NCBI GenBank assembly: GCA_049999805.1
Contig: JBNGIO010005882.1
Location: 1-61,156 of the forward strand
Source: Folioceros fuciformis
Lineage: Eukaryota
Length of the DNA stretch: 61,156 nucleotides
Direction: 5' to 3'
Shown here: positions 3,191 through 60,619 of the stretch, one piece after another
Layout of the letters: every line of letters starts with the position of its first letter
Numbering within the stretch: the stretch's first letter is position 1
The notes under the pieces: model-generated
Seen by the model: only the letters and a program-made list of their open reading frames with translations
What the model was told of the DNA's origin: nothing
The model's database searches: none
Translations under genes and position numbers: made by a program

Positions 3191-4123
3191 TGGTATCAAA
3201 GCATCCTCGTTCTCCAATCCTATTCTATTTATCTATGTCCCTCTTCTGAAAATATTGCTGGCAATGCTAGTTGTTAGACATACAATTGGGAACAATAATC
3301 AGCCACCACCATCATGACGGCTGCTAAGTTGTGTGCCCAACATAGTCTCACAACCTGTATTACAATGTCAGAATTGGGGAAGACATGAGATACAATTCTG
3401 CTGCGCCATCTTTTGTAAACAAAAACTTCAATGTTTTTACTTATCTCACTGTTATGGTGCGTTGGGGCGGGAGGCACGTTGATGATTGAGTGATTAACAT
3501 TAATCAGTACCGTCATTGGAATTGCCGCAATAGGCTGCCCCCATACCCACCGAACATGAGAGTTGAGTTCTTGCTACTACGGCCTAGCTCTTCGTCTCTA
3601 TGTTGCTACAACGTCATTGAAGGAAATTGGAATAGACAAGCAAGATTTTCACTAGATTCGTGCGTTAGAGACTCTCCAGGAGTCTTCTCAGCCCTTGCAT
3701 TAACGCTCTCAATGAGAAAGCCTTATGGTCGAGAATCTACAACAAGAGGAAAGTAGTGATTCTCCTTGTGCTTCCTCTTGTGCAGAATCTCACTGTTGAA
3801 TCAACAAATCAAAGGTGTCACAACACAAAAACAGTGATTGATGCTGCCATGTACCTTTCATAGGTCCCCACTCGGGAGTGGAGGAATCCTCCTTCCCTGT
3901 GATTTTGCGGGGAGAATCCAAACGTCGCGTGGCAGCGGGAATAGTCGTACTAACGACGTTACCTATGCGCCACATCACTTGTGAAGAAGGTGTGGCTTCC
4001 CAGAAGGCGCATGCTACGAACCAACGTGTTGGTACTGATGCTCACCTGCCTGATTTGACTGCCTACTTCCATGGCATCTCGATCCCCTGTTAAATTAGCG
4101 ACTTCACCAAGTTACGCTCATGC

Positions 4124-7100
4124 TTGGTTACCCACTGCCCTACACAGAGGATCACGATGTCGGGAACCATCTCAGGCTCCGTCTCCGGCACAGCATCCTC
4201 CACTGGAACCGCTATAGCCGCAGGAACAACATCAACCTCTGGTTCTGGCCCGGGCGCCGGCACAGAGTGCGCTTCTGGCACCGGTGTAGGTCCTCCACCA
4301 CAAAGCACTCTAGTTTACTCATATACTATAGAATTCAAAGAGCGAGACCGCTTCAACGGTACTCATTTTGAAGTCTGGCAAGTGCGAATGACTTCTACAC
4401 TCGAAGCTCGTCACGTACGGGGGGTTGTTGGTGGGGTGGTGCCCAAACCACCTTCATTAGCCACACAGGACGAGAAGGACAAGTGGCAGCATCTCAATAA
4501 TGTCGCTCGTGCCTACTTGATTAGTGGCTTGGATGTTGTCCTCCTACCCAATACTACTTATCTAAACAAGGTCGAGGACATATGGAATCAGCTCACTTAG
4601 ACATATGCTGTGAAAAACATTCTCACCATATGTGTTGTTCGTGGAGAGCTCTTCTCTTTAAGGCTGAAGTTGCTCCCTTCATCCTCAAATGTCGCAATCT
4701 GCAATCGCAACTTATCAGCTTGGGGCCTGCCTTCTCCAAATTGGACTTTGTTGCCCAATTGCTCACAAGCCTTCCTCCAAGTTACCAAACTTTTGTCTTT
4801 GGCTACGGTGCTTCCATATGCGCAGCTAACAAGGTAGTAGCCGCAGGGAAGGTTGTTCGTATCAGCTTCATAGATGTAGTTGGAGCTCTCCTGTAGGAAG
4901 AGCAAAGATGGGTAATCTTAGGTCACCATGGAGGCATAACCAAAACAGATAGAGTACTCTTCATCAAAGGAAGAAACTCGGATAAAAACAAATCACACAA
5001 AGGCAGGCCCTTCCAAACCTGTTCCAAGTAAATGGGCTGGCACATGCCATTGGTGTGGCGCCCAAGGCCATTGCGAGAGAGAATGTAGGAAGAAAAAGTC
5101 TAGCGAACCCTGCAGAACTGAGAAGCCTTCAAGGCAGGCTGAAGCTCACGTGGTTGCCAAAGATCAACAAGCTTCGTCAAACAAACCACCTGTGGTGATG
5201 ACAATGTGTTTTGCGTCTTCTACTGTTTCTTCTCCTAACAATTGGTACTTAGATTCTGGTGCAACGGCTCATATATGTAATGACAAGTCACTCCTTAATC
5301 ACTTCGGTCCTTTCATCCTACTGACAAAGTGCTGCTAGGAGATGAACTTACTCGAACATGTCTTCGCATTGAAGGTGTTGGATCATGTCATTTCAGGCTC
5401 CATGATGGATCTGTCCTCCACTTGGATAACGTCCTTTACGTACCTCACATGGCCAAGCACCTCATTTCCGTCAGTCAGCTTATGTCCTTAAGGCAGTACG
5501 ATCTGATGTTCTCTTCTTTTGGCTGTTTGCTCAAAAAGAAAGGAAACTCAGATCAGATCATAGCAAAAGGGCATTTAGGGCATGACCTTTATCAAATGGA
5601 TTTTAGATGCATACATGAAGAGACTGTTCACGTTGTATAGTTGTCACAAGCTACAAGCCAATCTATGGCATGCTCGACTAGGCCACGCTAATCGTGGTAA
5701 GCTAGTCAAGATGTCTGACATGACATGTTTCTGAGAACCCTTGCGTAGATGCTTCAAAGATTTGCCACTTTATGATGCCTGTATCATTGCCAAACAAAAG
5801 GAGATTCCTTTTCCAAGGCAGTTAACTGCTCACAGGGCCTCCCAGATTATGGATTTAGTTCATGCGGACATCTCTGGCAAGATACACATCTCTTCACTGG
5901 GTGGTGCTCAATACTATCTAACCCTGACAGATGATTACAGTAGATATTCTTGGGCTTACCCACTTCATTTGAAGTTAGACACTTTTGGCGTGTTCTAGGA
6001 ATGGCTTCAAATTGTGCAAAGGTAGACAGGCTGCCTATTGAAGTGTCTTTGAACAGATAATGGTACATAGTTTGTCCACTCTCATTTCAACTAGTTTTTA
6101 CTAGATAGGGGAATTATCAAGCAGTTGATTGTTCCATTAACTTAGCAGCAAAATGGAGTTGCTGAGCGTTGCAATCAAACCCTATTGGGAATGACACGCA
6201 GTATGTAGAATGGTCTAGGCTCAACAAATCTTATTAAGCTGAAGTAGTGGTAATTGTGAATTACATCCTCAACAGGATCATCATGAGCGCAGTTGTAGAC
6301 CAAACTCCTTTTGAAGTGATCTAGCAAAGGAAGCCCAATCTTCTTCATTTGCGAGTGTTTGGTTCTCCAACTTACGTAAGCCTATATTCTTGCAGAAAAG
6401 AGGAGGAAATCAGAAGATCGAGCTACACCCTTGCTTTTTGTCGGCTATGGCAAAGAGGCTAAAGTTGTATGATCCTCAAAGCAAATATGTCGTTTTTGCA
6501 CGCAGTGTAACCTTTAAGGAGCTCCTATCCCCTGCTAAGCCCTATTTCAACCTTCTACCTTCAAGCCAAGAGCCTATAGTGACTCATGTAGAGATTTATG
6601 CCCTTGACGAGCTGACTTTGTTTCCCCATGATGACTTGCCTGTAATCACTCAGTTCTTAGCTCCAGCTATAGCTACACTTCTTGCAGTCACAGCTTCAGC
6701 TAACAAAGGTCATGTCCCAGTTTGTCAAGCTCTTGTTTTGGTCAATCCAGCACCTGTAGCAGCCCCTCTGCCACCTGATGATCCTCCAGGCAACCTCCTT
6801 GCACCAGAAAACCCTGAAGGCGGTGGTGCAAGTCAACAAGTTCCCATTTATGATCTTGGTGATTTAGGGTTTGCGGACGACATGTCTGAACTCTTAGCTA
6901 GATCAGATCTAGGTGACTTTGTTGCTCCCTTGCTAGATGATCTTGAAGAGGGTCCTGTTGCAAAACCAGCTCCTGAGTCTGCACCAATAAAAGAACGTCG
7001 TTACCCCACTCGTCAACAGCTTCCTCCGACACAATGGAAAGAACCTTGTTATACCTTAGTAGATTTTCGGAGGCCACGAGTTGGAATCTTGAGTTTTCCT

Positions 7101-24773: not shown

Positions 24774-27288
24774 CGTGGTTCAAAGGGAGGCACATGGAAG
24801 GCAAGTTTCTGGGCAAGTGCCCAAGGTAGTGAGTGGCTGGTGAAGGTTTTATTGGATTTTTTTAGTTTTGTTTTGATAGGTTAGGTGTGTGGCAATAGGA
24901 CGAGGTAGCGCTCCTTTAGAAAAAGGAGATACCTACGTAGCTAGATGCGTAGATGCTTAGTAGGGAGAGTACCTATGTACGTTTACATACAGGTAGATAC
25001 CTACCTATATAACTTGAAAGATACCTACCTAGGGAAGGTACTTAGAGGGGAAGACCCTATGTAGACTACCCACCTATGAAAGGTGCTCACCTACAAAAAG
25101 GAAGTGGTTGGGAGCCTATTTACGGCAATGGGGGTAAGGAGCCTACCTAAGGCGAATGGAGCAATAGAGAACCTACGTACGGAGGGTACATCCTCATCCT
25201 ATGTAGAGAGGGAGGATCATCGAGAGACAATCCCTCCATCGAAGGGAGGAGTTCTTTCGGTTGAAGGACAAGCGAGTCCCTCCCCTACATACTTAGGAGT
25301 GATATGTATGTGGTGGTGAGGGGAGGCCCCAAGAGATCAACACAAAGGAAGGTTCAGGGAAAGCTCATGGATCTAAGAGAATAGGGATCCAAATAACGGA
25401 GAGGGCACAACAACCAATTGACTCCACCTCCCTTCACGAACAGTCCTAGCCACTCCCTTCTGGAGGAGGGGCCTAAGAATCCCTTATGAAGGCGCCGACG
25501 GTCTGCAACTTTCAGCGGCGCACATTGCCCTAATAGATTATTGGTAGGCCTTAGTATCTTGACAAGCGTGTATATTTAAGTCTATGGTGGCTAGCTTTGA
25601 GAGGATGGTAGCCCACCACCTACATGTAATGGAGGGTTCAAGTGTTGAGCTCTCCTATAAGAAGGGGCTACACAAAGAAATGAACCACCACATTGTGCAC
25701 TCTTCTCATGGCGAGTCCTCATACTCAGTTGAGCATAGGGATTACGTTGCTAGCTGTGTGCCATCACAATGCCTGGTTGTGGCAGAGTTGTAGTGGTCAA
25801 AGTGCTTGGTGAAGGGCTCATATTCTTGTATGGGCACCCCTACAAGTTGCTTCACTTGTGAATGGTTGTTGTGTGAGTTGCTTTGCTGTAGGTGTGTGGT
25901 GATACCTGCGTGATTGTTGGCTTGAGGCTAGACCGTAGGAAAAGACTCCATGGAAGTTCTCACTAACAGGTGCAAACATGAAGCAACCGGCCCAAGGAGA
26001 AACTTGTTGGTTGTTGGACGTATGGAGATCAGCAGTTGGATTGTTGGGTTGAGAAAGGTGTCATAGGGAGCCTTGTGGGGAAAGCAGTATTGAGTGTAGG
26101 GAGAGAAAAATCGGTAGGCGGAGTATTGGGGTCCTAATAAATGAGGGAATGGTGCCCTCCTGCTCATTGGACATGTTGTAGAATTGGTAGGTACATGATT
26201 GGGAGTGTTGATTATCATAGGTAAACGATAGACGTAGTTGGGGTAGCCGACCACTAGGCTCAAGGGAGCGATTCCATGGAAAACCTACAACGACTGTGGG
26301 AGTAATGTGGCCATGATATTTGTGAGCAATGTATGGTGGGGGTACCATACCCACTCGCCCACATGAATCCCCGTCTTCTAATATGTCAAGTTCAGGATGT
26401 TTGGGGTCCTTATTCTACCAACCAAGAGGTCGAATTGCTAGCAAGTTTATTAGAGGATCGATAGGATTTTCTTTCCCATACCGACCAAGACATTTGCATG
26501 CTTGTGACGTAGAAGGTCACTTTCAAGTTAGATCAACAGATGAAAGGGCTAGAAATGCTCCAAGTCCCACTTAGGGTAGATCTTTACAAGAAAGGTAGTC
26601 CCACTTAAGGTATATCTTCACAAGAAAGGTAGTATAGAAGCTCTTCACTTAGCAAGTTCTGATGACTCAAGATATCTTGAGCCATCTTGCTTTACTTGGT
26701 TCTAAAACGAAGTAAAGCAAGAGGTAGGATGGCTAGCAACCAAGACTTCTTTGAACTCCTTTATGGCTTCTTCTATAATTCTAGTGGTTATTCATCTTAG
26801 AAGAAAATTTTGGGCATACTAAACTAGTCCAACCAAGAGGTTGAAGGATTGGGAAATTTTTAAGATACCACTCATAAACAAGGCATATTAATTGCAAAGG
26901 ATGAGCAATGTGTGGAACGCCTATTGAGGAATGGAGAAGTATAAGAGGGGCATGTTAGGAAGCTCTCAGCGCACACTTAGGGACACCAACTAACTTTAGG
27001 CATGCACTTGGGTGCACCAACTAGCTCCTCATGCTCATTTGGGCATGCCAACCAGCTTCACTTGCTTTGAGTATGCACTTGTGTGTGCTAACTAGTTCTT
27101 AGCATGCATTGATGCATTTGTGGGCTCTCCACATGCATTGTTATAGAAACGATGCAAGAGAGTCCTTTTACCGTGTTGCTGGGTTGGCTCCTATGCACAA
27201 CTTTTTTTTCATGGAAGAAAATTTATATTGAGATAGCTCACGCTAGAAGATCAGAACAAAGATAGGGTGTGGCTAAAGCAGGTCACTT

Positions 27289-27317
27289 AACATGTTCTGC
27301 GCCTAACGGTCGTATTC
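27289..27317 (+). repeat. Left TIR AACATGTTCTGCGCCTAACGGTCGTATTC
   Basis: Reverse complement of 34268-34296 with 2 mismatches. Confidence 0.92.
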
Positions 27318-27606
27318 TATGAAGCCCGTTTGGCGCACATTTGAATTTACACCATTCTAGTCACATATCCACACTGTTTTTTTTTTAAACCACCTGTTTT
27401 GACGTGTGGTGGACACCATCCATCTCCACAAATGTGCCAACAACCCACAACCAACTGAGACATAAGTTATTAAGACTATAAAAATTTAGACAAAAAACGA
27501 ATCGTACTTCATGTGCGCCGGTCTACCAGCGCACTCAACAATATGTATGGGTGACAGGAAGTTGGCTATGCGCATGCCATGCATTAAAAAGCTTTAAAAG
27601 TCAAAT

Positions 27607-30478
27607 TTAAATATCATCATAATGTATCACGGACCTCAGCTACTCTCTAAATCTTCTCTACAACAAATCATGAATGTTCTGGTTGGCCTCGGAATCGACA
27701 ACTATATCTACATCTTAGAGGCGCTGGCCCTATGTGTCTCCGAAGTCGTCTCCCTCTACGTCCAGGACAAAGAAATGTGGGTCGTCCACTGTGTAAGGCG
27801 GAAGTGTGCCATTCTCATCCCAAATTGTCATCGCGTACAGATCTTCCGCTGGTCTGTCGTCCGATTGAGAAATTATCTCTCCCTTTTTCCCCAACAAACT
27901 GTACACCTACATACCTCGATCCACGCTACCGTCCGCGCAGACTTCTTTGGCCCAAAACTTCGTGGGCCCGTGCGAGAAGGGGTCAGTGCTGATCTCTTCG
28001 TCAACGTCTGGCAAAGATCCAATGTCATTCACTCTCTACATCATGTAAGTCGTGCATCGTATATCGACGTCCATCGCGACAACATGCCTTCCTCTCTGAA
28101 TTGCAGCCTGAAGGAACGACCCAGATCCTGCACACGCATCCAATACCCAGTCTCCTTCAGCCGAAAACATATTGACTAGCATTCCCATTCACCCTAGAGG
28201 CTTCTGATACGAGGAGACGACCATCGAATCTGCCGAGTGAAACAGATGTTTTTTAACCACAGCTCCATGCCTTATTACTCTCGGCAAAAGAAATCCCTTA
28301 TTAGCAAATAAAGCAACTTTTGTGGTCTGCGCTTCTGAGTGGACTGCACTTCCAACAGTTAGATACTCCACAGTCTCCACTGCCCCTGCATTAGGAGGAA
28401 TGTTGGTCTTCTCCCATACCAATGTCTGTATGGTGCCCTTCTTGCACCATGGCTGAAGTGCTTCCCTCGCCTACGTCATGAGGTCCACCCCATGCATGAG
28501 GACCACTCTATACACATTACTACTTGTGCATTCAGAAAACCCTCTTATCATGTCTTCAAGTTCTTTGCAAGTCAGCTGCCTATCAAAGTCATGGCGGTGT
28601 AGTCCGTGAGGCAAATCAGCGAATAAAAGAGTATACGGTCATTTTACTAGAAATCCATTCATCTCCAGAACGTTTCGCTGTATTACTTGATACTTGGTTT
28701 TTTGGTTGGTGTTGGGGACTCTAAACTCCGACAATCCTGCATCCATGTCAACGTCCTCCATTTTCTGTTTTTCCTCTTCCATGCACTTCTAGTTTCTCAC
28801 TGAATACACGTAATCCTGGAAAGGCTTCGGCAATGATTCGAGATCGTTTATGTCTGCAAGTTTTTGCCAACAAACAGTTTCGTCAGCACAACCACACTAT
28901 GGCCACAATTATACACTCTAGACTACATGAACCCTTAACCATGATGACACAAACTACTCTTCTGACTTGAGTGCGCCGATAGACCGGTGCACTCCCCCCG
29001 AGTCTCCCTCTTTTGGAGTGGACGTGACCAACTTCACTCCAAAAGATGGACAGGACCTGCGATCGTGTTCTTCCTCTTGTGCGGTGAAGAAGATGTCACT
29101 GAAACATTTCAAGATGGTAAACAAGATGTCAGCGTCAGTGGCCTTTCAAGATACCCGTTTCTGCACAGATGAGAACAGTAGGATCAACGGGTGAGCTCTG
29201 GACAGCAACTTGTGTTTCTCTTCCGCATCTTGGACAGAGAGGTGCTTGCAGTCTTCCTCTTCGGTAGCCCGGCGCACCGTCTTCTACTTCTTCCAGGGTG
29301 GGGTTATCTCTATTGGCGAATCTTCTTCACCCTCTTCTTCCTCTCCAGAGCCTCAAGCCGCATCCAGGGCTTCATTTAGGTTGTCCTCCGTGGAAGAGTA
29401 ATGTCCCATCTCTCTGTCCTCCTCACGGCTAAGTTGTTTAGGGTCACGGAGGTCGTCTTCTGAAAGCTCTGGCTGCATGTGCAGCATCTCTACCGGCTTC
29501 TCAATCCTCTCCGTTTGCCTTGATGAGATGGGGCCAAACTCTGCTTGCATGGACACCCACTGGCGCTCTCCTGCAATTCTCGAAGCAAGAGCTCGATTCT
29601 TGAGGACGCAATCGGCAACAAAGCGCAAGACAGTCGGACAGAATTGTTCACCACTTTGCAGGAAACACGTTATGCAAATGTTTAGGGTTATGTAATGCTG
29701 GGTTAATAAACGTAAACAAAGAATCCACAAAACAAATACTAACATCTTCCACATTCATGCAATCTCACAAAGCGGTTTTTAGCCACATCGATTCACAGCG
29801 CTGTGGCACAGCTCTCGCGACATTGACTACAATCAGGCTGTGGCTATCGTAGTCATCGGTGACATGGCTTGGTGGGTGCCGCGTGCATATGAAATTGACA
29901 TGGGTTTCCTCTTCCATGCCATCAACAGATGCACACAGAATCCATCCAGGCCTCCCTGCCTCATTGTCCTGCAACCGTTGGAAACCGTTAACCCATAGAG
30001 CCACCAGTGGCACCCAAGGAAAATTGCAGTCTTCTGGCTCCTCTTCTAAGAGTAAAAACCACTTTTTGTCTGTGTTGAATCTTTTGGCAAGTGTGTCTTC
30101 AAGCTTTTTTAGCTTCAAACGCTCAACAAAGTTGTACGCATTTGGAATGTTGTGGTTTTGACTACCACCCGTGCTGCCACCCTGAGTCACATTCACAAGA
30201 ACATGGTTAATATGAACGTCGCTAGCTTTGTTGTTCGAGGCACGGACGCTCCTGGCTGAATTGTCTTTCCTTAATGTAACAACTGGTGGCTGTGGTGTAA
30301 CATCCCCTATTGTGATCGTTGGTCTTCGATGACTATCTCTTTCAACGATTGGGCCAGAGGCAGTGCGAGCTGAAGCTTTCACTCCCTGTCATGGTTTCTT
30401 CAACCTTGGTGGTGCCTCCAATGCTTGCATGTCAATGGCCGCATTCAGTTGCTTGTTGCTCTGCCGGCCAGCTGCCAT
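27607..30478 (-). pseudogene. Transposon-borne protein with a C-terminal beta-class N4-cytosine/N6-adenine DNA methyltransferase domain (N6_N4_Mtase-like), disrupted by stops
   Basis: One frame from 28740 to 28021 reads KYQVIQRNVLEM...PYTLLFADLPHG (motif IV, DPPY-like)...TLVWEKTN...VEYLTVG...YQKPLG*MGMLVNMFSAEGDWVLDACAGSGSFLQAAIQRGRHVVAMDVD (motifs X, I, II). Motif IV precedes motif I, which is the beta order. The N-terminal part starts at putative ATG 30478, with an apparent intron at ~29655-29765. The stops read are TAG/TGA/TAA. Confidence 0.82.
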
Positions 30479-30835
30479 CTTCGATCGCAGTAGAGAGCCT
30501 GTGAACGATGGAACTTCAAAACACTTGGTCTGATCCAAAAGGACTAAAGAATGGCTTAAGCATTGAACTAAGAGATTTGAAGTCAACTGTGAAGTTGAAT
30601 TTGTGTTTCCTGAAATAGCAAGGGTGTTTGAACAACGTCTCCAGCATTTATGCCACAACAACGATTGTAGACGCCGTTTCGGACCAACAACCGCTATTTG
30701 TTATCGTGATCAAACGTTTATATTCAAGTGTCGGCTTAATTACGCTAGTGTAACCTGTCTTCAATCAAACTCTGAGTGACGTTAGCTTCCATTCTGTAAG
30801 GAAGGTCATTTGCGAGCAATCTTTGCGACATTGGC

Positions 30836-33800
30836 ATGGATTGGCAAGCTTCTTCTTCACGCGACGTGGTGGCGATGACAACAACGGATTTCAACTTTCA
30901 AGGTAGGCGAGGAATTCGGTTCGCGAAGGGCATTCGTGTGTTCTAGTTGGAAGTCTTATGTTCTCTATTTGCGTCATGATGCTTTGTAGTCGATGATTCA
31001 GCAGGTGCCGACATCGACTTACGAGCGTCGCCTATACGCCTTAGTCTTCTCGACGACATCCACACTTCAACAAGCCCATTGCGAACCCAATCGCCTTTTA
31101 GGCCAGCAATCAGGAAAACAACACCTATGAAGGGAAATGCGGACGGCACTATCTTGCACGATAACCTTGATAATCTAGATGTGAAAGGAAATGCGAGTGG
31201 AAGTTGGGTACTAGGAACATCAAGCGGGGAGCGCTTCCATCCCGAAGGCGAAGGAGCGGATGTGTTGTCCGAAGAAGCTGGCAGGACGATGGGCACAACG
31301 GTGCAAAGAACATACAATCTGAAACCATCATCCGAATCTCTGATTGAAGCTCCTAGAGATCATCGACGCAGTCGAAAGAAAAAAAATCTTGACTGTACCT
31401 GAGGCAAAGTGCTCTAAGATCCGTATTTCTGCAGATTGCCGCAGGATATGTTGTGCAAAGCAGTGTCTTAGATCCTTGGGTAAACCAGGCTTTCGGGATT
31501 TGAGGTATCGATTTTTAAGCATGTGCCGGACAGAGCAAGAAATGTTTTTGCAGACCTTATTTGATGTCAATCGTCCTTATGATGGACGCTCTACAGCGAA
31601 GACTTTTTTGATTGGATCTGCCAAGATATGCTGTTGTCGGGACGCCTTCAAACGAGTTTTTTGTATCAGTGTGAATTTTTTGCTACTAGCAGAATGCATG
31701 GCGAACATTGAAGTGTACCATCTTCCAGACTTGTACACAAAAGAGGATTTTTTTTGGGAGTACAAGCAGCAAATGCAATGAGCGGAACAGTACAGTATGT
31801 GTTACTCTTATTTATGTCAATTGTGGGCTTCACATTTCCACAAAGTGCGAATTCCGAAGACCAACAGGTTTTTGCTTTGTACAACTTGCAACTACTTGGA
31901 AAGAAACATCAGAGCCGAGTCTGATAAGAAGAAACAAGGTATGTAAGTGTGTTTTTTTAGGTACGTTTCATGTAGGCATTGGAAGTGCGCCGGTCGACCA
32001 GCGCACTTTCAACCCTCCTTCCGTGATAAGTGCGCCGGTTGACCGACACATTTTATTAGCTGCGTAGATAGTGGGTGTGCGCCGGTAGACCAGCGCACTC
32101 CCTCTGCTTAGCATCACGAAGTCTGTGGGCTGACTGCACATTGGTGGGAGTGCACCGGTAGACCGACGCACTCTCTCTGCCTCCTCTCACGAAGTCAAGG
32201 GTCTGACTGCGCATTGGTGCACCGGTCTACTGGTGCACACCCACCTGGTCGCACCCTTTTTTCTTATTCTGATTTGAAATTCCATGTTTTTTTTTGTAGA
32301 GGGCTTCGAATCTGACTTGAAGGTACATCGAAATAGATTGATAGCAGAGCACGAGAAGAGTATCAAACATCGGGTCAAATGTTATGGCGACCACGGAAAG
32401 TACATTGGGATATCAGTGGATGGAATGGATCAACAAAAGACTCAGCTGCCCCATTTCATTTGAGTACCAAAAGATTTGGTGGATGTTGGCCTCCTTGATG
32501 TGCATGTGGTAGGGTGTATGGTATACAACAAGACTATGAGACCGAAGCTCTTCATCAAGTTCGGCAACATTCAGAACGATGCAAACCTAACAATATCAAT
32601 TATCCAACGCGTGATTCACGAGTACGACGGCCCGCTACATGAAGTTCTATACTTGCAGCTAGACAACACTGCACGCGAGAACAAAAACACGTTGCTTTTT
32701 TCTTATTTGAATATGTTAGTGGAAATGCGGGTTTTCGTGAAGATTTTTAAGTCGGGTTCTTGTTAGTGGCCCACACGCACAACCAGGTTGATCAGATGGT
32801 TTCCAGGTTTTCAACGGCACTTGGTTAGAGGGAAGCTTTGACTTTACCAAAACTTATTGCAGTTATGCAAAACGCGTATACCCCCATGCCAAACGTTCAT
32901 GAGGTGAAAGAGGTGGCGGACTTCAGAAAGTTTGTGTGGCCTGTACCGTACGGGAAAGCAGGATATCAGAGTGTTGCAGCGGTTCATCAGCTGCATAATA
33001 TATCGTTTCAACACCAGTTCAAGATCACGAAAGAGAGCCGCGGAGATCGTGGACTTGTTTCAGTTATGAGAGGCAAAAAATATTCCACCGATCAATATTG
33101 GTTGCCTAATGACGGTATAGAATTTCTTAAATTAGTTCCGGATGGGGTTATAAAAGCCACTCCACTAATGCATTTGCAGGTGAGGAGAAGGAAACAGAAG
33201 ACTATTACTAACGATGTGCCAGGATATAATCTGTCGCAGATTCGATCAAGATTGGAGTGCAAATTACGGCAGCACTTAGGTCTGGGCGAGGACATGTGGT
33301 GGGATTCATTTTGGGCCGAGCAAGAGGCCATTGTTCAAATAATAAATTCGGGTGTGGAGCAAGACCTTGACTGGCCATGGCGATGGTATAATCGCGACAA
33401 GGCAGAGTTGTTGAATACCCCATTACTCGTGCCAGATGCTGTGGTATTGGAAAACCCACGGATACGAGAAGTTCCTAGAAGAAATATGTATGTGGGACCT
33501 TATAGAAGAGACGCACACGTTCGCAATGATGTTGACAGCTTCAGTGGAGATGTATCAAAGATCGAAGCAGGGCACATGATTGCTGTCCCATGCGAGATAA
33601 ACGAAGACAACAGGCCTTTTTGGATCGCCAAAGTGTTAGACACACAGAAGGAAAATGACACTCATAGTATCACAATCCATTGGTGGGTCACGAAATGTTC
33701 AGATGCATTTGAAGGATGATATCAAGAGGAGATGATATTGCCAAATGAAGAACCTCCCATGGGTTAGACTAGACAAGGACGTAAGCGACGGCCAAGCAGA

Positions 33801-33947
33801 AGACTTCGGAAGCATATTGACACAATATCTATTGCGAACACTTTTATCTTAGCGTGTGGATTGGAGTTGACTCGTCAAAAACAGCTGCACGCTCGCACTC
33901 GAAACCTTATTAGAAAGAACTTGTATGTGCTCGTGCCGGTAGACTAG
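30836..33947 (+). pseudogene. Sola1-like DDD transposase, intron-containing, disrupted
   Basis: N-terminal Cys region CCAKQC...CRDAFKRVFCIS and FPQVRIPKTNRFLLCTTC, then an intron at ~31939-32299. Catalytic motifs follow: ISVDGMDQQKTQLPH, LYLQLDNTARENKN and FLLVAHTHNQVDQ. There are a few stops and frameshifts. The start at 30836 is inferred. Confidence 0.85.
31985..32238. repeat. Five copies of a 22-bp imperfect palindrome (consensus GTGCGCCGGT-NN-ACCGGCGCAC) in the transposase intron
   Basis: Copies start at 31985, 32030, 32077, 32150 and 32217. Further copies lie at 27513, 28971 and ~33931. Confidence 0.88.
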
Positions 33948-34267
33948 CGCACTCCTTCCGTTGATGCATAAATGGGCAATATTGAAAAACCCTTACCATT
34001 TTTGAATTTCTAGTATTTCCGATTTCAAAAATTATCATTCCGTCTACATGCAATTGGTAGTGTCAGACCAACCGTGGAACTGGATAGGATCAAGGAATTT
34101 CACTGCTAGCCCGCAATTTTGCCTAGTTTCTGGGTAAACATGATGAATACAAGGTTCGTCGTGACCGCTGTTCTGTAGATTTGGGGGTAATCGACACCAA
34201 ATAGCATGAATCCTAGATATGTGCCACAAAAAATAACGCAGAAAATGACCCGAAGCCCGATTTGGCG

Positions 34268-34296
34268 GAATACGACCGTTAGGCGCACAACTTGTT
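34268..34296 (-). repeat. Right TIR AACAAGTTGTGCGCCTAACGGTCGTATTC (read on the - strand)
   Basis: Matches the left TIR and is followed by the ACTT TSD. Confidence 0.92.
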
Positions 34297-34300
34297 ACTT

Positions 34301-35230
34301 ATTGTTATTGCCTAGTGTGGTCAATAAAACAGAATATGCTAAAATTGGGTATGGATGAGGATTTGGAGACAAACCAACCCACGCCTTAAGTCAAGCAAGG
34401 AGTATAACAAGAGTGCTTTACCCTCTCCATGGGCACAAGTGGTTCCATACCATCTCTCTCCCCGCAGCGAGGAGGCTAGCTTGCCTCCAATTCATGCTCT
34501 TGAACTTGTGTGGGTTGGCCACTTTTGCTTCTTCTACCAATATGAGAATGTGCTCCCAAATTCGCTAAAGCAAAGATTTAACTGTCATTAGATCTCCCCC
34601 CCCCCCCCCTTCACAAGCCACCGTTATCCAGTTGAGCCAAATGCTAGAGAGACTAGAACTCACACCAAGCCCCACTATTGTTGTTGGAAGAGTGGTTTGC
34701 CTATAGTTTCATCAAGGCTAACGAGAGTAGTCTGCTCTGTAATAAGAAAATTAGTCTTCAAGAAGAGGCACAATAGCCACCTTCCCCCCTCCCTCCGTAC
34801 TGCTTGCACGTAATCATACCAAAAGAACAAGTGTTGACTTTTGTTAGGTGTGCTAAGAGGGCACATTCAGCAGAATTCCTCGCCCACCGTTGTTAGCAGC
34901 CCATCCCATTTGTCGGCCATGGACAAACAAGCTTCAAAGAAACTCCAAATCAAAAGTCTGACTTTAGGGGGGATACCAATAGCTAACCACAACTCGCTGC
35001 CGATGCATTATTAAGAGTCTTAGCCTCGAAACCATTGGTTTGCACAAGGGATTCCTCTTCAACCAAACCAACCAATGGTAGATATTTGTTGTCTGGTGAT
35101 TGAAGAAGCGTCGGGTGCAGCCCTGTTGACTACCCAGGCCGGCAGGTCACATGATCAGATCTTGTCACATAGTAAGTTGCCAATTGTCTAACGTCCTAAA
35201 CCACCATTGACGCTTGGGGCAACATGGGGG
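34301..35230 (-). mobile_element. LINE (L1-like) ORF2 3' fragment, decayed
   Basis: The - strand gives VAPSVNGGLG (post-RT PxxxGGLG motif) and CPLSTPNKSQHLFFW (zf-RVT-like). A possible 3' end with AATATAAA and an A8 tail lies left of the Sola element at ~27202-27284. Confidence 0.55.
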
Positions 35231-36285: not shown

Positions 36286-36385
36286 NNNNNNNNNNNNNNN
36301 NNNNNNNNNNNNNNNNNNNNNNNNNNNNNNNNNNNNNNNNNNNNNNNNNNNNNNNNNNNNNNNNNNNNNNNNNNNNNNNNNNNNN
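36286..36385. other. Assembly gap (100 N)
   Basis: Run of N. Confidence 1.
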
Positions 36386-36827: not shown

Positions 36828-37961
36828 TTAAGGTGAACCTGAAATATTTTGTTCTCGAAAAAGATTGTACTTGGGTCTACCTCTTTTACTTGCAATTCCC
36901 CAATGTCTTTCAACTGGATTTAAATTGTCTGGTTTTTGATCCTCATCCGTCAAACCAAAGAGAAAGACAGTTAAGTGACGGTTTGGTCTCATAGGAGTTC
37001 CCTCTCCCCTCCTCAAGTAGTTCACAAGATTTGCATTATAGCGATGCGCTACTGTCAAATTGGCATATTGACTACCACTAGTAGGCCAACCTGTTTCTGT
37101 AATTATCAGCTTCATGTGCTCGTGACCTAGTTTGCTTAAAGCAGATACTGCATAGTCAAAAGCAGCTTGAAAAGCACTAGGATAGTTTTGACCTACCATA
37201 TTATTATCTTCAAAAGCCCAATCAAAAGGATAGTTAGGGTTGAGAGCGTAGAAAGGATATATATTAATTGAAAATGAACTGTTATGTTCATGCAAGAAGC
37301 TTGTTATTTGTGTCATAAGGGATGATATTTCGTTCCTGAATACACCGTTATGAGGATCATTAAGAGGGTCTACAACTAGCACACTTCCACTAAACGGAAT
37401 TGTGAGCTTTACAGAATTTAAATTATTTGAATCCAAGATCGACTGTATATTGTGAAGTGCTCTCATTACTTGCGGGCCAAGAGCAACATAATTTAATATA
37501 TCCGGCAAATCTGGCTCATTCCCTAATGCAATGTGCCTGCAAACGCAGAAACAAAACATGCATGAGCATCCGTGTTTATTAGCAATAGTAAACAACAGAC
37601 TTAAAAGTTCCACTCACGTAATAGTTGCTCCTCCTTTCACGTAAGGGAAGATATTTGTCATAACCCAAGAATGAGCAAATTCCCTATCCGCCATAGCTGT
37701 TACGTTCTCATTTGGACATCCAACTATGACTTTTATCTTTGGATGGCTCATTAACTCATGCAAGTATGCATGATCTGGTTCAAAAAACTTGATTCTATTG
37801 AATCCATATGTGCGTATCAAACGAATACCATGTTGTGGGCTGAGAGGATGAGAGGACAACATCCCCCAATTAATACCTATGCCATCAATTTGCAAAAGAT
37901 ATGGCAATACCGATAGTAATAACAACAAGAATTGTAGGAATAAAGTTCTTCTTATAGCCAT
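36828..37961 (-). CDS. Glycoside hydrolase family 17 beta-1,3-glucanase, secreted, ~350 aa, 2 exons
   Basis: Exons 37961-37618 and 37536-36828 (81-nt GT-AG intron). Signal peptide, IGINWG, IALGNEP (acid/base Glu), INIYPF, IITETGWPTSG (nucleophile Glu) and ERHWG. No X8 domain or GPI tail. Confidence 0.93.
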
Positions 37962-60519: not shown

Positions 60520-60619
60520 NNNNNNNNNNNNNNNNNNNNNNNNNNNNNNNNNNNNNNNNNNNNNNNNNNNNNNNNNNNNNNNNNNNNNNNNNNNNNNNNN
60601 NNNNNNNNNNNNNNNNNNN
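60520..60619. other. Assembly gap (100 N)
   Basis: Run of N. Confidence 1.

Follow-up and report, generated by a model that had tools for sequence, protein, structure and literature searches.

Positions 27289-34296 (7,008 bp) of a 61,156-nt stretch of contig JBNGIO010005882.1 (assembly GCA_049999805.1), hereafter the window, which represents 61 kb of plant DNA from Folioceros fuciformis, are occupied by a mobile element with two genes on opposite strands, a transposase gene with the Pfam domain DUF7869 and a gene for a methyltransferase-like protein. Very probably, the element is an old copy, now dead, of a plant DNA transposon that is Sola-like, moves by cut-and-paste, and exists in multiple copies, with a three-aspartate (DDD) transposase accompanied by a methyltransferase-like accessory gene across the lineage. 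The accessory gene is a lineage-wide component of these transposons and no private capture, and would belong to the (ParB-like)-methyltransferase family reported for Sola1 of Ectocarpus. The element is called Sola-like on the basis of the DDD motifs and a 4-bp target-site duplication, not of Repbase or Dfam profiles. The two-gene arrangement of a cut-and-paste element, which had been proposed from the letters of the DNA alone (the “sequence-only reading”), is upheld by the placement of the opposite-strand transposase and methyltransferase genes inside the terminal inverted repeats (TIRs).

Boundaries of the Element

The left TIR (27289-27317, + strand) begins with AACATGTTC and pairs as an inverted repeat with the right TIR (34268-34296, - strand), which ends in CAACTTGTT. 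The arms are 29 bp long and 93% complementary, with two mismatches between them, and a 20-nt TIR core is found at no third place in the 61 kb, whereas two matches were reached in none of 100 shuffled sequences. The tetranucleotide ACTT adjoins the left arm at 27285-27288 and abuts the right arm at 34297-34300. Sola elements, which have been recorded in the moss Physcomitrella, are described as 2-9 kb long and as having DDD transposases and duplications of 4 bp (PMC10741241; PMC9033089). The duplication of the superfamily was found here on both sides of one copy with both ends, and the claim of a complete element with TIRs and a 4-bp duplication thus holds.

In a single copy, the flanking sequences ...CACT/TA/ACATG and CTTGT/TA/CTTA would also permit a 2-bp TA duplication, with a TIR that begins one base further in and an element that is not Sola-like. 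This reading was rejected and has next to no chance of being correct because related elements, described below, terminate at eight loci exactly at ...TGTT before unrelated flanks, which sets the exact end of the element and makes the duplication the 4-bp ACTT. At locus L012 the next base is unlike that of the other four aligned loci, which places the last T inside the element, and the transposase is of the DUF7869 family and not of any Tc1/mariner family.

No further copies or fragments of the element were found in the 61-kb window. A 15-16-nt motif, GAAGCCCG(T/A)TTTGGCG, lies just internal to both TIRs (27321-27335 and 34252-34267) in direct orientation, and its left-end copy is able to pair with part of the TIR (GCGCCTAACGG).

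Transposase

The + strand gene matches Pfam DUF7869 at 32464-32766 (E = 1.6e-22) and contains the motifs DGMDQ, LDNTARENKN, and HTHNQVDQ, in line with the earlier assignment of a DDD transposase to this strand. Across an alignment of the product and 22 relatives, hand-picked as the long and named ones and spread from plants to cnidarians, DGMDQ, DN..RENKN, and HTH...DQ are kept in at least 95% of rows. The conserved motif set fits a D-D-D transposase, in which the aspartates would be catalytic, and by motif conservation it provides the DDD triad of the Sola superfamily as defined in PMC10741241. A search with the 150-residue core identified 116 of 189 candidates at E ≤ 0.001, all 116 with PF25273. 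The nearest named relatives are ten proteins of Riccia sorocarpa and one of the fern Adiantum nelumboides (45-52% identity), and more distant relatives were found in sea urchins, bivalves, Saccoglossus, amphioxus, and cnidarians. One DUF7869 protein of Branchiostoma lanceolatum (P0233, 776 aa) also contains Peptidase_C48, a ULP-type protease domain. Pfam names the transposase domain only as DUF7869, and no mention of DUF7869 was found in the literature searched.

The transposase gene consists of two exons. Exon A (31383-31939, + strand) encodes a Cys-rich N-terminal region with an in-frame stop at 31779, and is covered by 39 blastx rows to transposase relatives that start within 31365-31788 and mostly end at 31901-31943. 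The coding frame may extend upstream to approximately 30980 across a 1-base difference at 31379, where five contigs of run X1, one of two DNA runs (X1 and X2) from one sample of the same organism, are one base shorter. Within the GT..AG intron (31940-32297, + strand) are five copies of a palindrome, at 31985-32238, along with two copies of a 73-bp tandem repeat; the intron is supported by the Riccia models P0184, P0188, and P0182, which have 16, 6, and 6 residues between the aligned blocks compared to 17, 7, and 7 in the spliced window sequence. Exon B (32298-33947, + strand) encodes the DUF7869 catalytic core and the C-terminal region, with the motifs DGMDQ, QLDNTARENKN, and VAHTHNQVDQ, and is interrupted by in-frame stops at 32461, 32826, 33717, and 33765, which with 31779 amount to five in the transposase. 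There is also a frameshift near 32747, where all covering contigs are two bases shorter (two of two in X1 and three of three in X2).

With these lesions and six stops in the methyltransferase-like gene, the element copy is dead and both genes are pseudogenised, as the sequence-only reading had stated. That reading had also seen introns in both genes and, from these, a eukaryote-resident element. The residence is borne out by the one supported intron of the transposase, while the methyltransferase module turned out to be a single continuous frame.

Methyltransferase-Like Gene

The - strand gene includes a methyltransferase-like module of approximately 388 codons in one frame (27730-28893), with six internal stops, motif IV as FADLPHG, YQKP, motif I as DACAGSGS, and an acidic tail after motif I. 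The read-through of the module (P0001, with X at stops) scores 33.3 bits on Pfam N6_N4_Mtase (PF01555) against a cut-off of 26.7, and a 50-aa open reading frame (ORF) within it scores 28.8 bits by itself. The module aligns to residues 10-317 of a 446-aa relative, P0003 (30% identity, E = 9e-39), and is therefore complete and without a detectable intron. An exhaustive protein search with the module recovered 131 representatives at E ≤ 1e-3, and word-indexed protein searches with the read-through gave no match in either length class. Among 30 relatives that were looked up, six are named eukaryotic gene models (Gb_37443 of Ginkgo biloba, three of Chara braunii, and two of Riccia sorocarpa), and the other 24 are unnamed or listed as ‘hypothetical protein’ or ‘DNA modification methylase’.

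The family profile matches TTHA0409 (8e-11), CcrM (7e-10), M.RsrI, M.MboIIA, and the rotifer N4CMT, and sets DIPYG of the family against DPPY of CcrM in an alignment that spans both motifs. The predicted model of P0003 (mean predicted local distance difference test score, pLDDT, of 68.7, and above 90 in the core) has a beta-class fold, with CcrM (E = 3.4e-13), MboIIA, M.BceJIV, RsrI, N4CMT, and PvuII as its best fold matches, and the permuted order, with the catalytic motif IV ahead of the S-adenosylmethionine (SAM) motif I, was confirmed. The - strand gene product is accordingly classed as a beta-class (permuted) N6A/N4C DNA methyltransferase-like protein. The Pfam score, the permuted motifs, and the fold all agree with the earlier identification of a beta-class N4C/N6A methyltransferase-like gene on this strand.

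Motif IV in the window reads DLPHG and departs from the canonical (D/S/N)PP(Y/F/W). In the 41 of 131 matches where a regular expression found both motifs, DLPYG occurs seven times, DPPYG five times, DIPYG four times, and DLPRG three times, and motif IV in the wider family is mostly D[LIVF]PYG or DPPYG. The three nearest relatives of the window module (P0002-P0004) all have DLPRG and are ORFs of 288-446 aa. In a quick tree of 31 selected matches and the window, from which P0017 was omitted for lack of motif I, the window groups with these three DLPRG relatives (Shimodaira-Hasegawa-like approximate likelihood ratio test, SH-aLRT, 97), and this DLP(H/R)G group is nested in a 12-row group to which the proteins of Riccia and Ginkgo also belong (SH-aLRT 93, short of 95). 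Viral contigs yielded 60 loci, 59 of which match part of the methyltransferase only, while one (L091) spans residues 4-191 at 25% identity; no close methyltransferase relatives were present among these 60 loci.

Repetition of the Element in Folioceros fuciformis

Contigs of the runs X1 and X2 with at least 80% likeness were aligned to positions 26500-35100. Contigs of both runs accumulate across the full element, with the methyltransferase included. Depth in X1, a sum over contigs that should not be taken for a copy number, lies at 12-17 in the flanks and at 95-1077 in every bin between the TIRs, and it returns to flank level at both TIRs. Depth amounts to 523-633 in the methyltransferase (27935-28508), 149-419 in ORF-X (the - strand ORFs upstream of the methyltransferase), and 430-1077 in the transposase, and the lowest internal bins are those of the non-coding part at 28796-29656 and of the transposase intron. 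Variant positions, at which this copy disagrees with almost every other contig, are common to 8-11 contigs in the methyltransferase (28477-28607), to 9-13 in ORF-X, and to 12-25 in the transposase. Derivatives of the element with internal deletions are suggested by two joints (27337>33933 and 27535>34053).

These data argue well, though indirectly, for a methyltransferase that is repeated to the same extent as the remainder of the element. Its high depth could instead stem from another repeat or from a host gene family, given that all contigs of at least 80% likeness are summed, that the contigs are short (200-870 nt), and that none is shown to link the region to a TIR. Such an origin is improbable, as the rise in depth continues unbroken from the left TIR on through the methyltransferase (183-633), with a drop to flank level at both TIRs, and the numbers of variant contigs are similar across all three coding parts.

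A third run from the same sample (X3) shows, over positions 26500-35100, a strong excess of C>T (419) and G>A (403) changes, while A>G and T>C amount to roughly 100-115. The run resembles a library converted with bisulfite or enzymes, which might hold information on 5-methylcytosine (5mC) in the element. A run guessed to be RNA (X4) has one contig, of low likeness, that touches only 34146-34287 and is not evidence either way on expression.

The Same Gene Pairing in Other Genomes and Metagenomes

The sequence-only reading had suggested a search for the same gene pairing in other non-seed plants, and such a pair was found in Riccia sorocarpa, where a ‘DNA methylase N-4/N-6 domain’ protein (R1sor_020633, E = 7e-19 to the window module) and a DUF7869 transposase (R1sor_020635, 33% identity over 217 residues) have locus tags two apart on one contig of 51,373,258 bp.

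The pairing was also identified on a metagenome contig, L004. Nucleotides 69 to 1 (- strand) of L004 encode the first 23 residues of a 908-aa DUF7869 protein (P0162) at 100% identity, and three further transposases match the same site at 70-83%. The transposase start of L004 thus lies head-to-head with a ParB-like and methyltransferase gene, 1.3 kb apart. The strand arrangement reported for accessory genes of this kind, opposite to the transposase, is found in the window as well as in the head-to-head layout of L004, while the N-terminal ParB-like domain is present in the relatives and not in the window.

Metagenome loci with methyltransferase relatives also share the ends of the element. In 12 of 140 loci a conserved 23-nt terminus was found downstream of the methyltransferase gene and on its strand. 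Eight of the 12 termini end in TGTT, like both ends of the window element (GAACGTGTT compared to GAACATGTT and CAACTTGTT). The flanks beyond the end are unrelated in the five loci that were aligned side by side, and the 12-nt flanks of all 12 loci look unrelated by eye. In related elements of approximately 70% nucleotide identity, the genes keep their order and their orientation towards the end of the element. From the shared ends followed by unrelated flanks, it follows that the methyltransferase gene lies inside a mobile unit, near one end and reading outwards, as in the window. Inside the element, L003 and L004 share 99% identity over 4.2 kb, but they differ past its end and are therefore separate insertions. 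The raised contig depth, the Riccia pair, L004, and the shared ends together confirm that the methyltransferase occurs in more than this copy.

Near-identical elements also split abruptly at internal points (L003:1-518 from L004:665-1182, and L002 beyond 3280 from L004 beyond 4240). This internal divergence may represent variant subfamilies, rearrangements, or assembly branching at repeats.

ORF-X, the ParB-Like Module, and Palindromes

Upstream of the methyltransferase module, the window element has the ORFs termed ORF-X (29353-30700, - strand), which comprise 29765-30700, with one in-frame stop, and 29353-29754, with a possible short GT..AG intron read by eye only. No relatives of ORF-X were found by Pfam, by the Atlas search, or by blastx against the fetched proteins, and ORF-X has no likeness to the ParB-like module. 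It may comprise 5' exons of the methyltransferase gene or a third gene.

In relatives of the L004 type, a 555-codon ORF lies upstream, with the methyltransferase module after it. For this 555-codon module, sequence searches of Pfam and of the PDB were blank. Its predicted model has a mean pLDDT of 48.6, with 60-83 over residues 250-480, and the best fold matches are PadC (Z 8.4, root-mean-square deviation 2.4, 93 aligned residues), KorB (Z 7.4), the ParB-N domain of pNOB8 (Z 6.9), and sulfiredoxin (Z 6.6), with Spo0J and SopB lower. The upstream module of the relatives is thus termed ParB-like on fold comparison, the only pointer to its identity, in which the Z values are middling and the matched family is consistent. 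In Chara, at least three gene models combine a ParB-like and a methyltransferase part, and one of these (P0018, GBG86584.1, 1825 aa) contains two such units in tandem, which suggests that two adjacent element copies were fused in the annotation.

A 22-nt palindrome, GTGCGCCGGT..ACC.GCGCAC, has seven sites in the window, all within the element and none in the other 54 kb, and not a single match was obtained in 100 shuffled sequences. Five copies are located in the transposase intron and one on each side of the methyltransferase module, namely GTGCGCCGGTCTACCAGCGCAC between the left TIR and the methyltransferase 3' end (27513-27534) and a second copy directly upstream of the module (28971-28992). 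In L004, the region between the transposase start and the ParB-like gene (599-1032) contains a tandem array of ten 41-nt units, every one of which includes a palindrome of 27 nt. The core of the L004 palindrome (TCGATAC..GTATCGA) is shared by L008 and L013, and was not found in the parts of L012 and L023 that were searched, so that two of the four regions are positive. These palindrome arrays look like binding sites, and the array CCAATTCGATACT.AGTATCGAATTGG may be a candidate binding array for the ParB-like module of the relatives. A separate 41-nt repeat in three copies is found at L004:4814-4958, approximately 430 nt inside the element end.

Alternative Readings

Several points weigh against a transposon with a lineage-wide accessory gene. 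Within F. fuciformis, the copy number rests on summed contig depth, only one copy was read base by base, and none of the listed contigs runs from the methyltransferase into a TIR or into the transposase. The Riccia neighbourhood is derived from locus-tag order and not from coordinates, on the assumption that tags follow gene order; a second Riccia methylase (R1sor_003565) is without a listed DUF7869 neighbour; and chance adjacency is more likely in regions rich in transposable elements (TEs). In the metagenomes, the transposase core was found in none of the 80 loci with methyltransferase relatives, and the transposase N-terminus in only one of 140 loci with 116 full-length transposases as queries, most contigs being too short to decide in both cases. 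Furthermore, the window element is without a ParB-like domain (no tblastn match; hhalign probability 0.1%), and the aromatic residue that characterised enzymes have in motif IV is gone in the window (DLPHG) and its three nearest relatives (DLPRG). The methyltransferase could be a passenger, captured by or nested in one sub-lineage and irrelevant to the element, with the matches elsewhere being host genes or other transposons in the vicinity. The absence of the transposase core from the 80 metagenome loci agrees with this, ParB-methyltransferase genes are also annotated as genes in Ginkgo and Chara, and the methyltransferase is enclosed by two palindromes, at 27513 and 28971, that score together as an inverted repeat of 26 nt. 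As ends of a nested insertion, these palindromes were rejected because the unit is self-complementary and recurs five more times in the element, and hence does not form a pair of ends. There is also no duplication beside them. The constant order and orientation of the gene relative to the element end, retained at approximately 70% nucleotide identity, the head-to-head transposase start of L004, and the pairing published for Ectocarpus Sola1 (PMC12477816) also speak against a passenger, to which little credence is given here.

It is a more serious concern that the protein of the DLP(H/R)G subgroup is catalytically inactive, and either serves as a SAM- or DNA-binding regulator of the element or has no function. 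The histidine or arginine of its motif IV, compared to the tyrosine of most of the family, would be consistent with inactivity, and retrotransposon DAM domains yielded no N6-methyladenine (6mA) when expressed heterologously (bioRxiv 10.64898/2026.05.21.726589). On the other hand, motif I, YQKP, and the W.K.N block are retained, the three DLPRG relatives are open reading frames, and the methyltransferase is among the best-conserved parts across copies, with a depth of 523-633 compared to 95-150 in the adjacent non-coding part. Inactivity of the subgroup is regarded as unlikely on balance, although it is the strongest of the competing explanations. A transposon lineage with its own methyltransferase-like gene is the preferred reading of the element.

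Comparison with Known Systems

The closest known system is Sola1-1_Ec32 of Ectocarpus, a 21.5-kb element with an accessory gene for a ParB-like and DNA methyltransferase protein of 1104 aa on the strand opposite to the transposase (PMC12477816, Genome Biol 2025). The authors propose that the accessory protein binds and modifies the element's own DNA, and note similar proteins for green and red algae, with reference to Iyer et al. 2011 as well as Petroll et al. 2025. Like the window element, Sola1-1_Ec32 is a cut-and-paste element called Sola-type, with a prokaryote-type N4C/N6A methyltransferase domain in its opposite-strand accessory gene, and its ParB-like and methyltransferase architecture is shared by the relatives of the window module (the L004 type, Ginkgo, and Chara). 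In contrast, the Ectocarpus element is from a brown alga, whereas the window element is 7 kb long, from a land plant, without a ParB-like domain, and has DLPHG; the two were compared by description and architecture and not by sequence. The statement in the sequence-only reading that no Sola family with this cargo had been described needs to be corrected for Ectocarpus Sola1, although not for the present family. In the literature searched, of incomplete coverage, nothing beyond the Ectocarpus paper was found on this cargo in land plants. The kind of element is thus already described, and what is apparently new is the land-plant setting, the conserved ends, the palindrome arrays, and the ParB-less DLP(H/R)G variant.

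Red-algal Plavaka elements (EnSpm) are also DNA transposons with a PF01555 methylase (accessory gene PAG2) and a ParB-like protein (accessory gene PAG3), and the tandem inverted-repeat arrays beside which PAG3 is found parallel the palindrome arrays described here (preprint of Petroll et al., bioRxiv 10.1101/2025.02.11.637652). However, Plavaka is of another superfamily, and its PAG2 combines the methylase with a SET domain in one fusion and its PAG3 a ParB-like domain with a 2-oxoglutarate oxygenase, while the methylase of the present family is alone or fused to a ParB-like domain. Other DNA transposons with methyltransferase cargo are Mariner-2_PGv as well as Mariner-1_OLpv of giant viruses, which differ in being Tc1/mariner elements of viral genomes with Methyltransf_26 and C5 methyltransferases paired with endonucleases (PMC3627910).

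The bacterial enzymes CcrM, M.RsrI, M.MboIIA, and M.PvuII and the rotifer N4CMT have in common with the family the order of motif IV before motif I, the HPTQKP-like YQKP, and the D.x.GSG of motif I, and they match the fold of the relative's model at E = 1e-13 to 1e-9. The family differs from the bacterial beta-class enzymes in being eukaryotic and transposon-borne with acidic tails, and in its motif IV, where L, I, V, or F takes the place of the first DPPY proline across the family, and H or R that of the aromatic residue in the subgroup. DAM domains of DIRS and long terminal repeat (LTR) retrotransposons are likewise prokaryote-type adenine methyltransferases on eukaryotic TEs, for which self-directed marking was proposed (bioRxiv 10.64898/2026.05.21.726589). 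They are of the Dam type with an N-P-P triplet and accompany a reverse transcriptase or a tyrosine recombinase, and the LTR forms are reported there to be absent from Streptophyta, whereas the window module is N6_N4_Mtase (PF01555) with D-L-P in an element with a DDD transposase and TIRs. MpDN4MT1a/b of Marchantia are prokaryote-type amino-methyltransferases in a non-seed plant as well, although they are host genes with TSPPY and a function in N4-methylcytosine (4mC) shown in sperm (bioRxiv 10.1101/2021.02.12.428880). The TSPPY motif is absent from the window module, and the family has D-x-P-Y/H/R. The sequence-only reading had suggested that such elements might be a vehicle for the entry of amino-methyltransferases into plant genomes, which for enzymes of the MpDN4MT1 kind would be speculative.

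Other Features of the Window

Outside the element, the window contains a copia-type gag ORF with weak Pfam hits (4094-4600), a glycosyl hydrolase 17 ORF on the - strand (36828-37613, E = 5.9e-36), and two 100-N assembly gaps (36286-36385 and 60520-60619).

Possible Role and Significance

In an intact element, the transposase would bind the TIRs, excise the element, and reinsert it with a 4-bp staggered cut, while the accessory protein would be made from the divergent promoter region. In the relatives with a ParB-like domain, the accessory protein may be tethered to the palindrome arrays within the element, where the methyltransferase could place 6mA or 4mC on the element's own DNA, and this modification might tune silencing or transposition. 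Real DNA methylation by the methyltransferase family is a distinct possibility that falls short of being probable. For the ParB-less DLP(H/R)G subgroup, methylation appears rather unlikely, and its protein may by now bind SAM or DNA without any catalysis. Self-marking with 4mC or 6mA and a block on host 5mC silencing, both suggested in the sequence-only reading, would likewise be hypothetical functions of a protein whose motif IV (DLPHG) lacks the aromatic residue.

A further-reaching proposal is that of a land-plant Sola-like lineage with an epigenetic self-marking module, in which the methyltransferase is aimed at the palindrome arrays and deposits 6mA or 4mC to escape or tune silencing. The aiming would be achieved by the fused ParB-like domain in the relatives and by other means, perhaps ORF-X, in the present element, and the DLP(H/R)G form would be re-specialised and not dead. 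Such a lineage may also have been a source of domesticated amino-methyltransferases in streptophytes, such as the Ginkgo and Chara gene models. This proposal is speculative and has only a small chance of being correct as a whole.

Transposons with their own DNA-modifying enzyme are rare, and the manipulation of a host's epigenetic control by mobile DNA can be studied directly in them. The module is now found in land-plant genomes, as represented by the gene models of Riccia, Ginkgo, and Chara, and on plant-like metagenome contigs. Genes of bryophytes, charophytes, and gymnosperms annotated as ‘DNA methylase N-4/N-6 domain’ may accordingly be transposon cargo.

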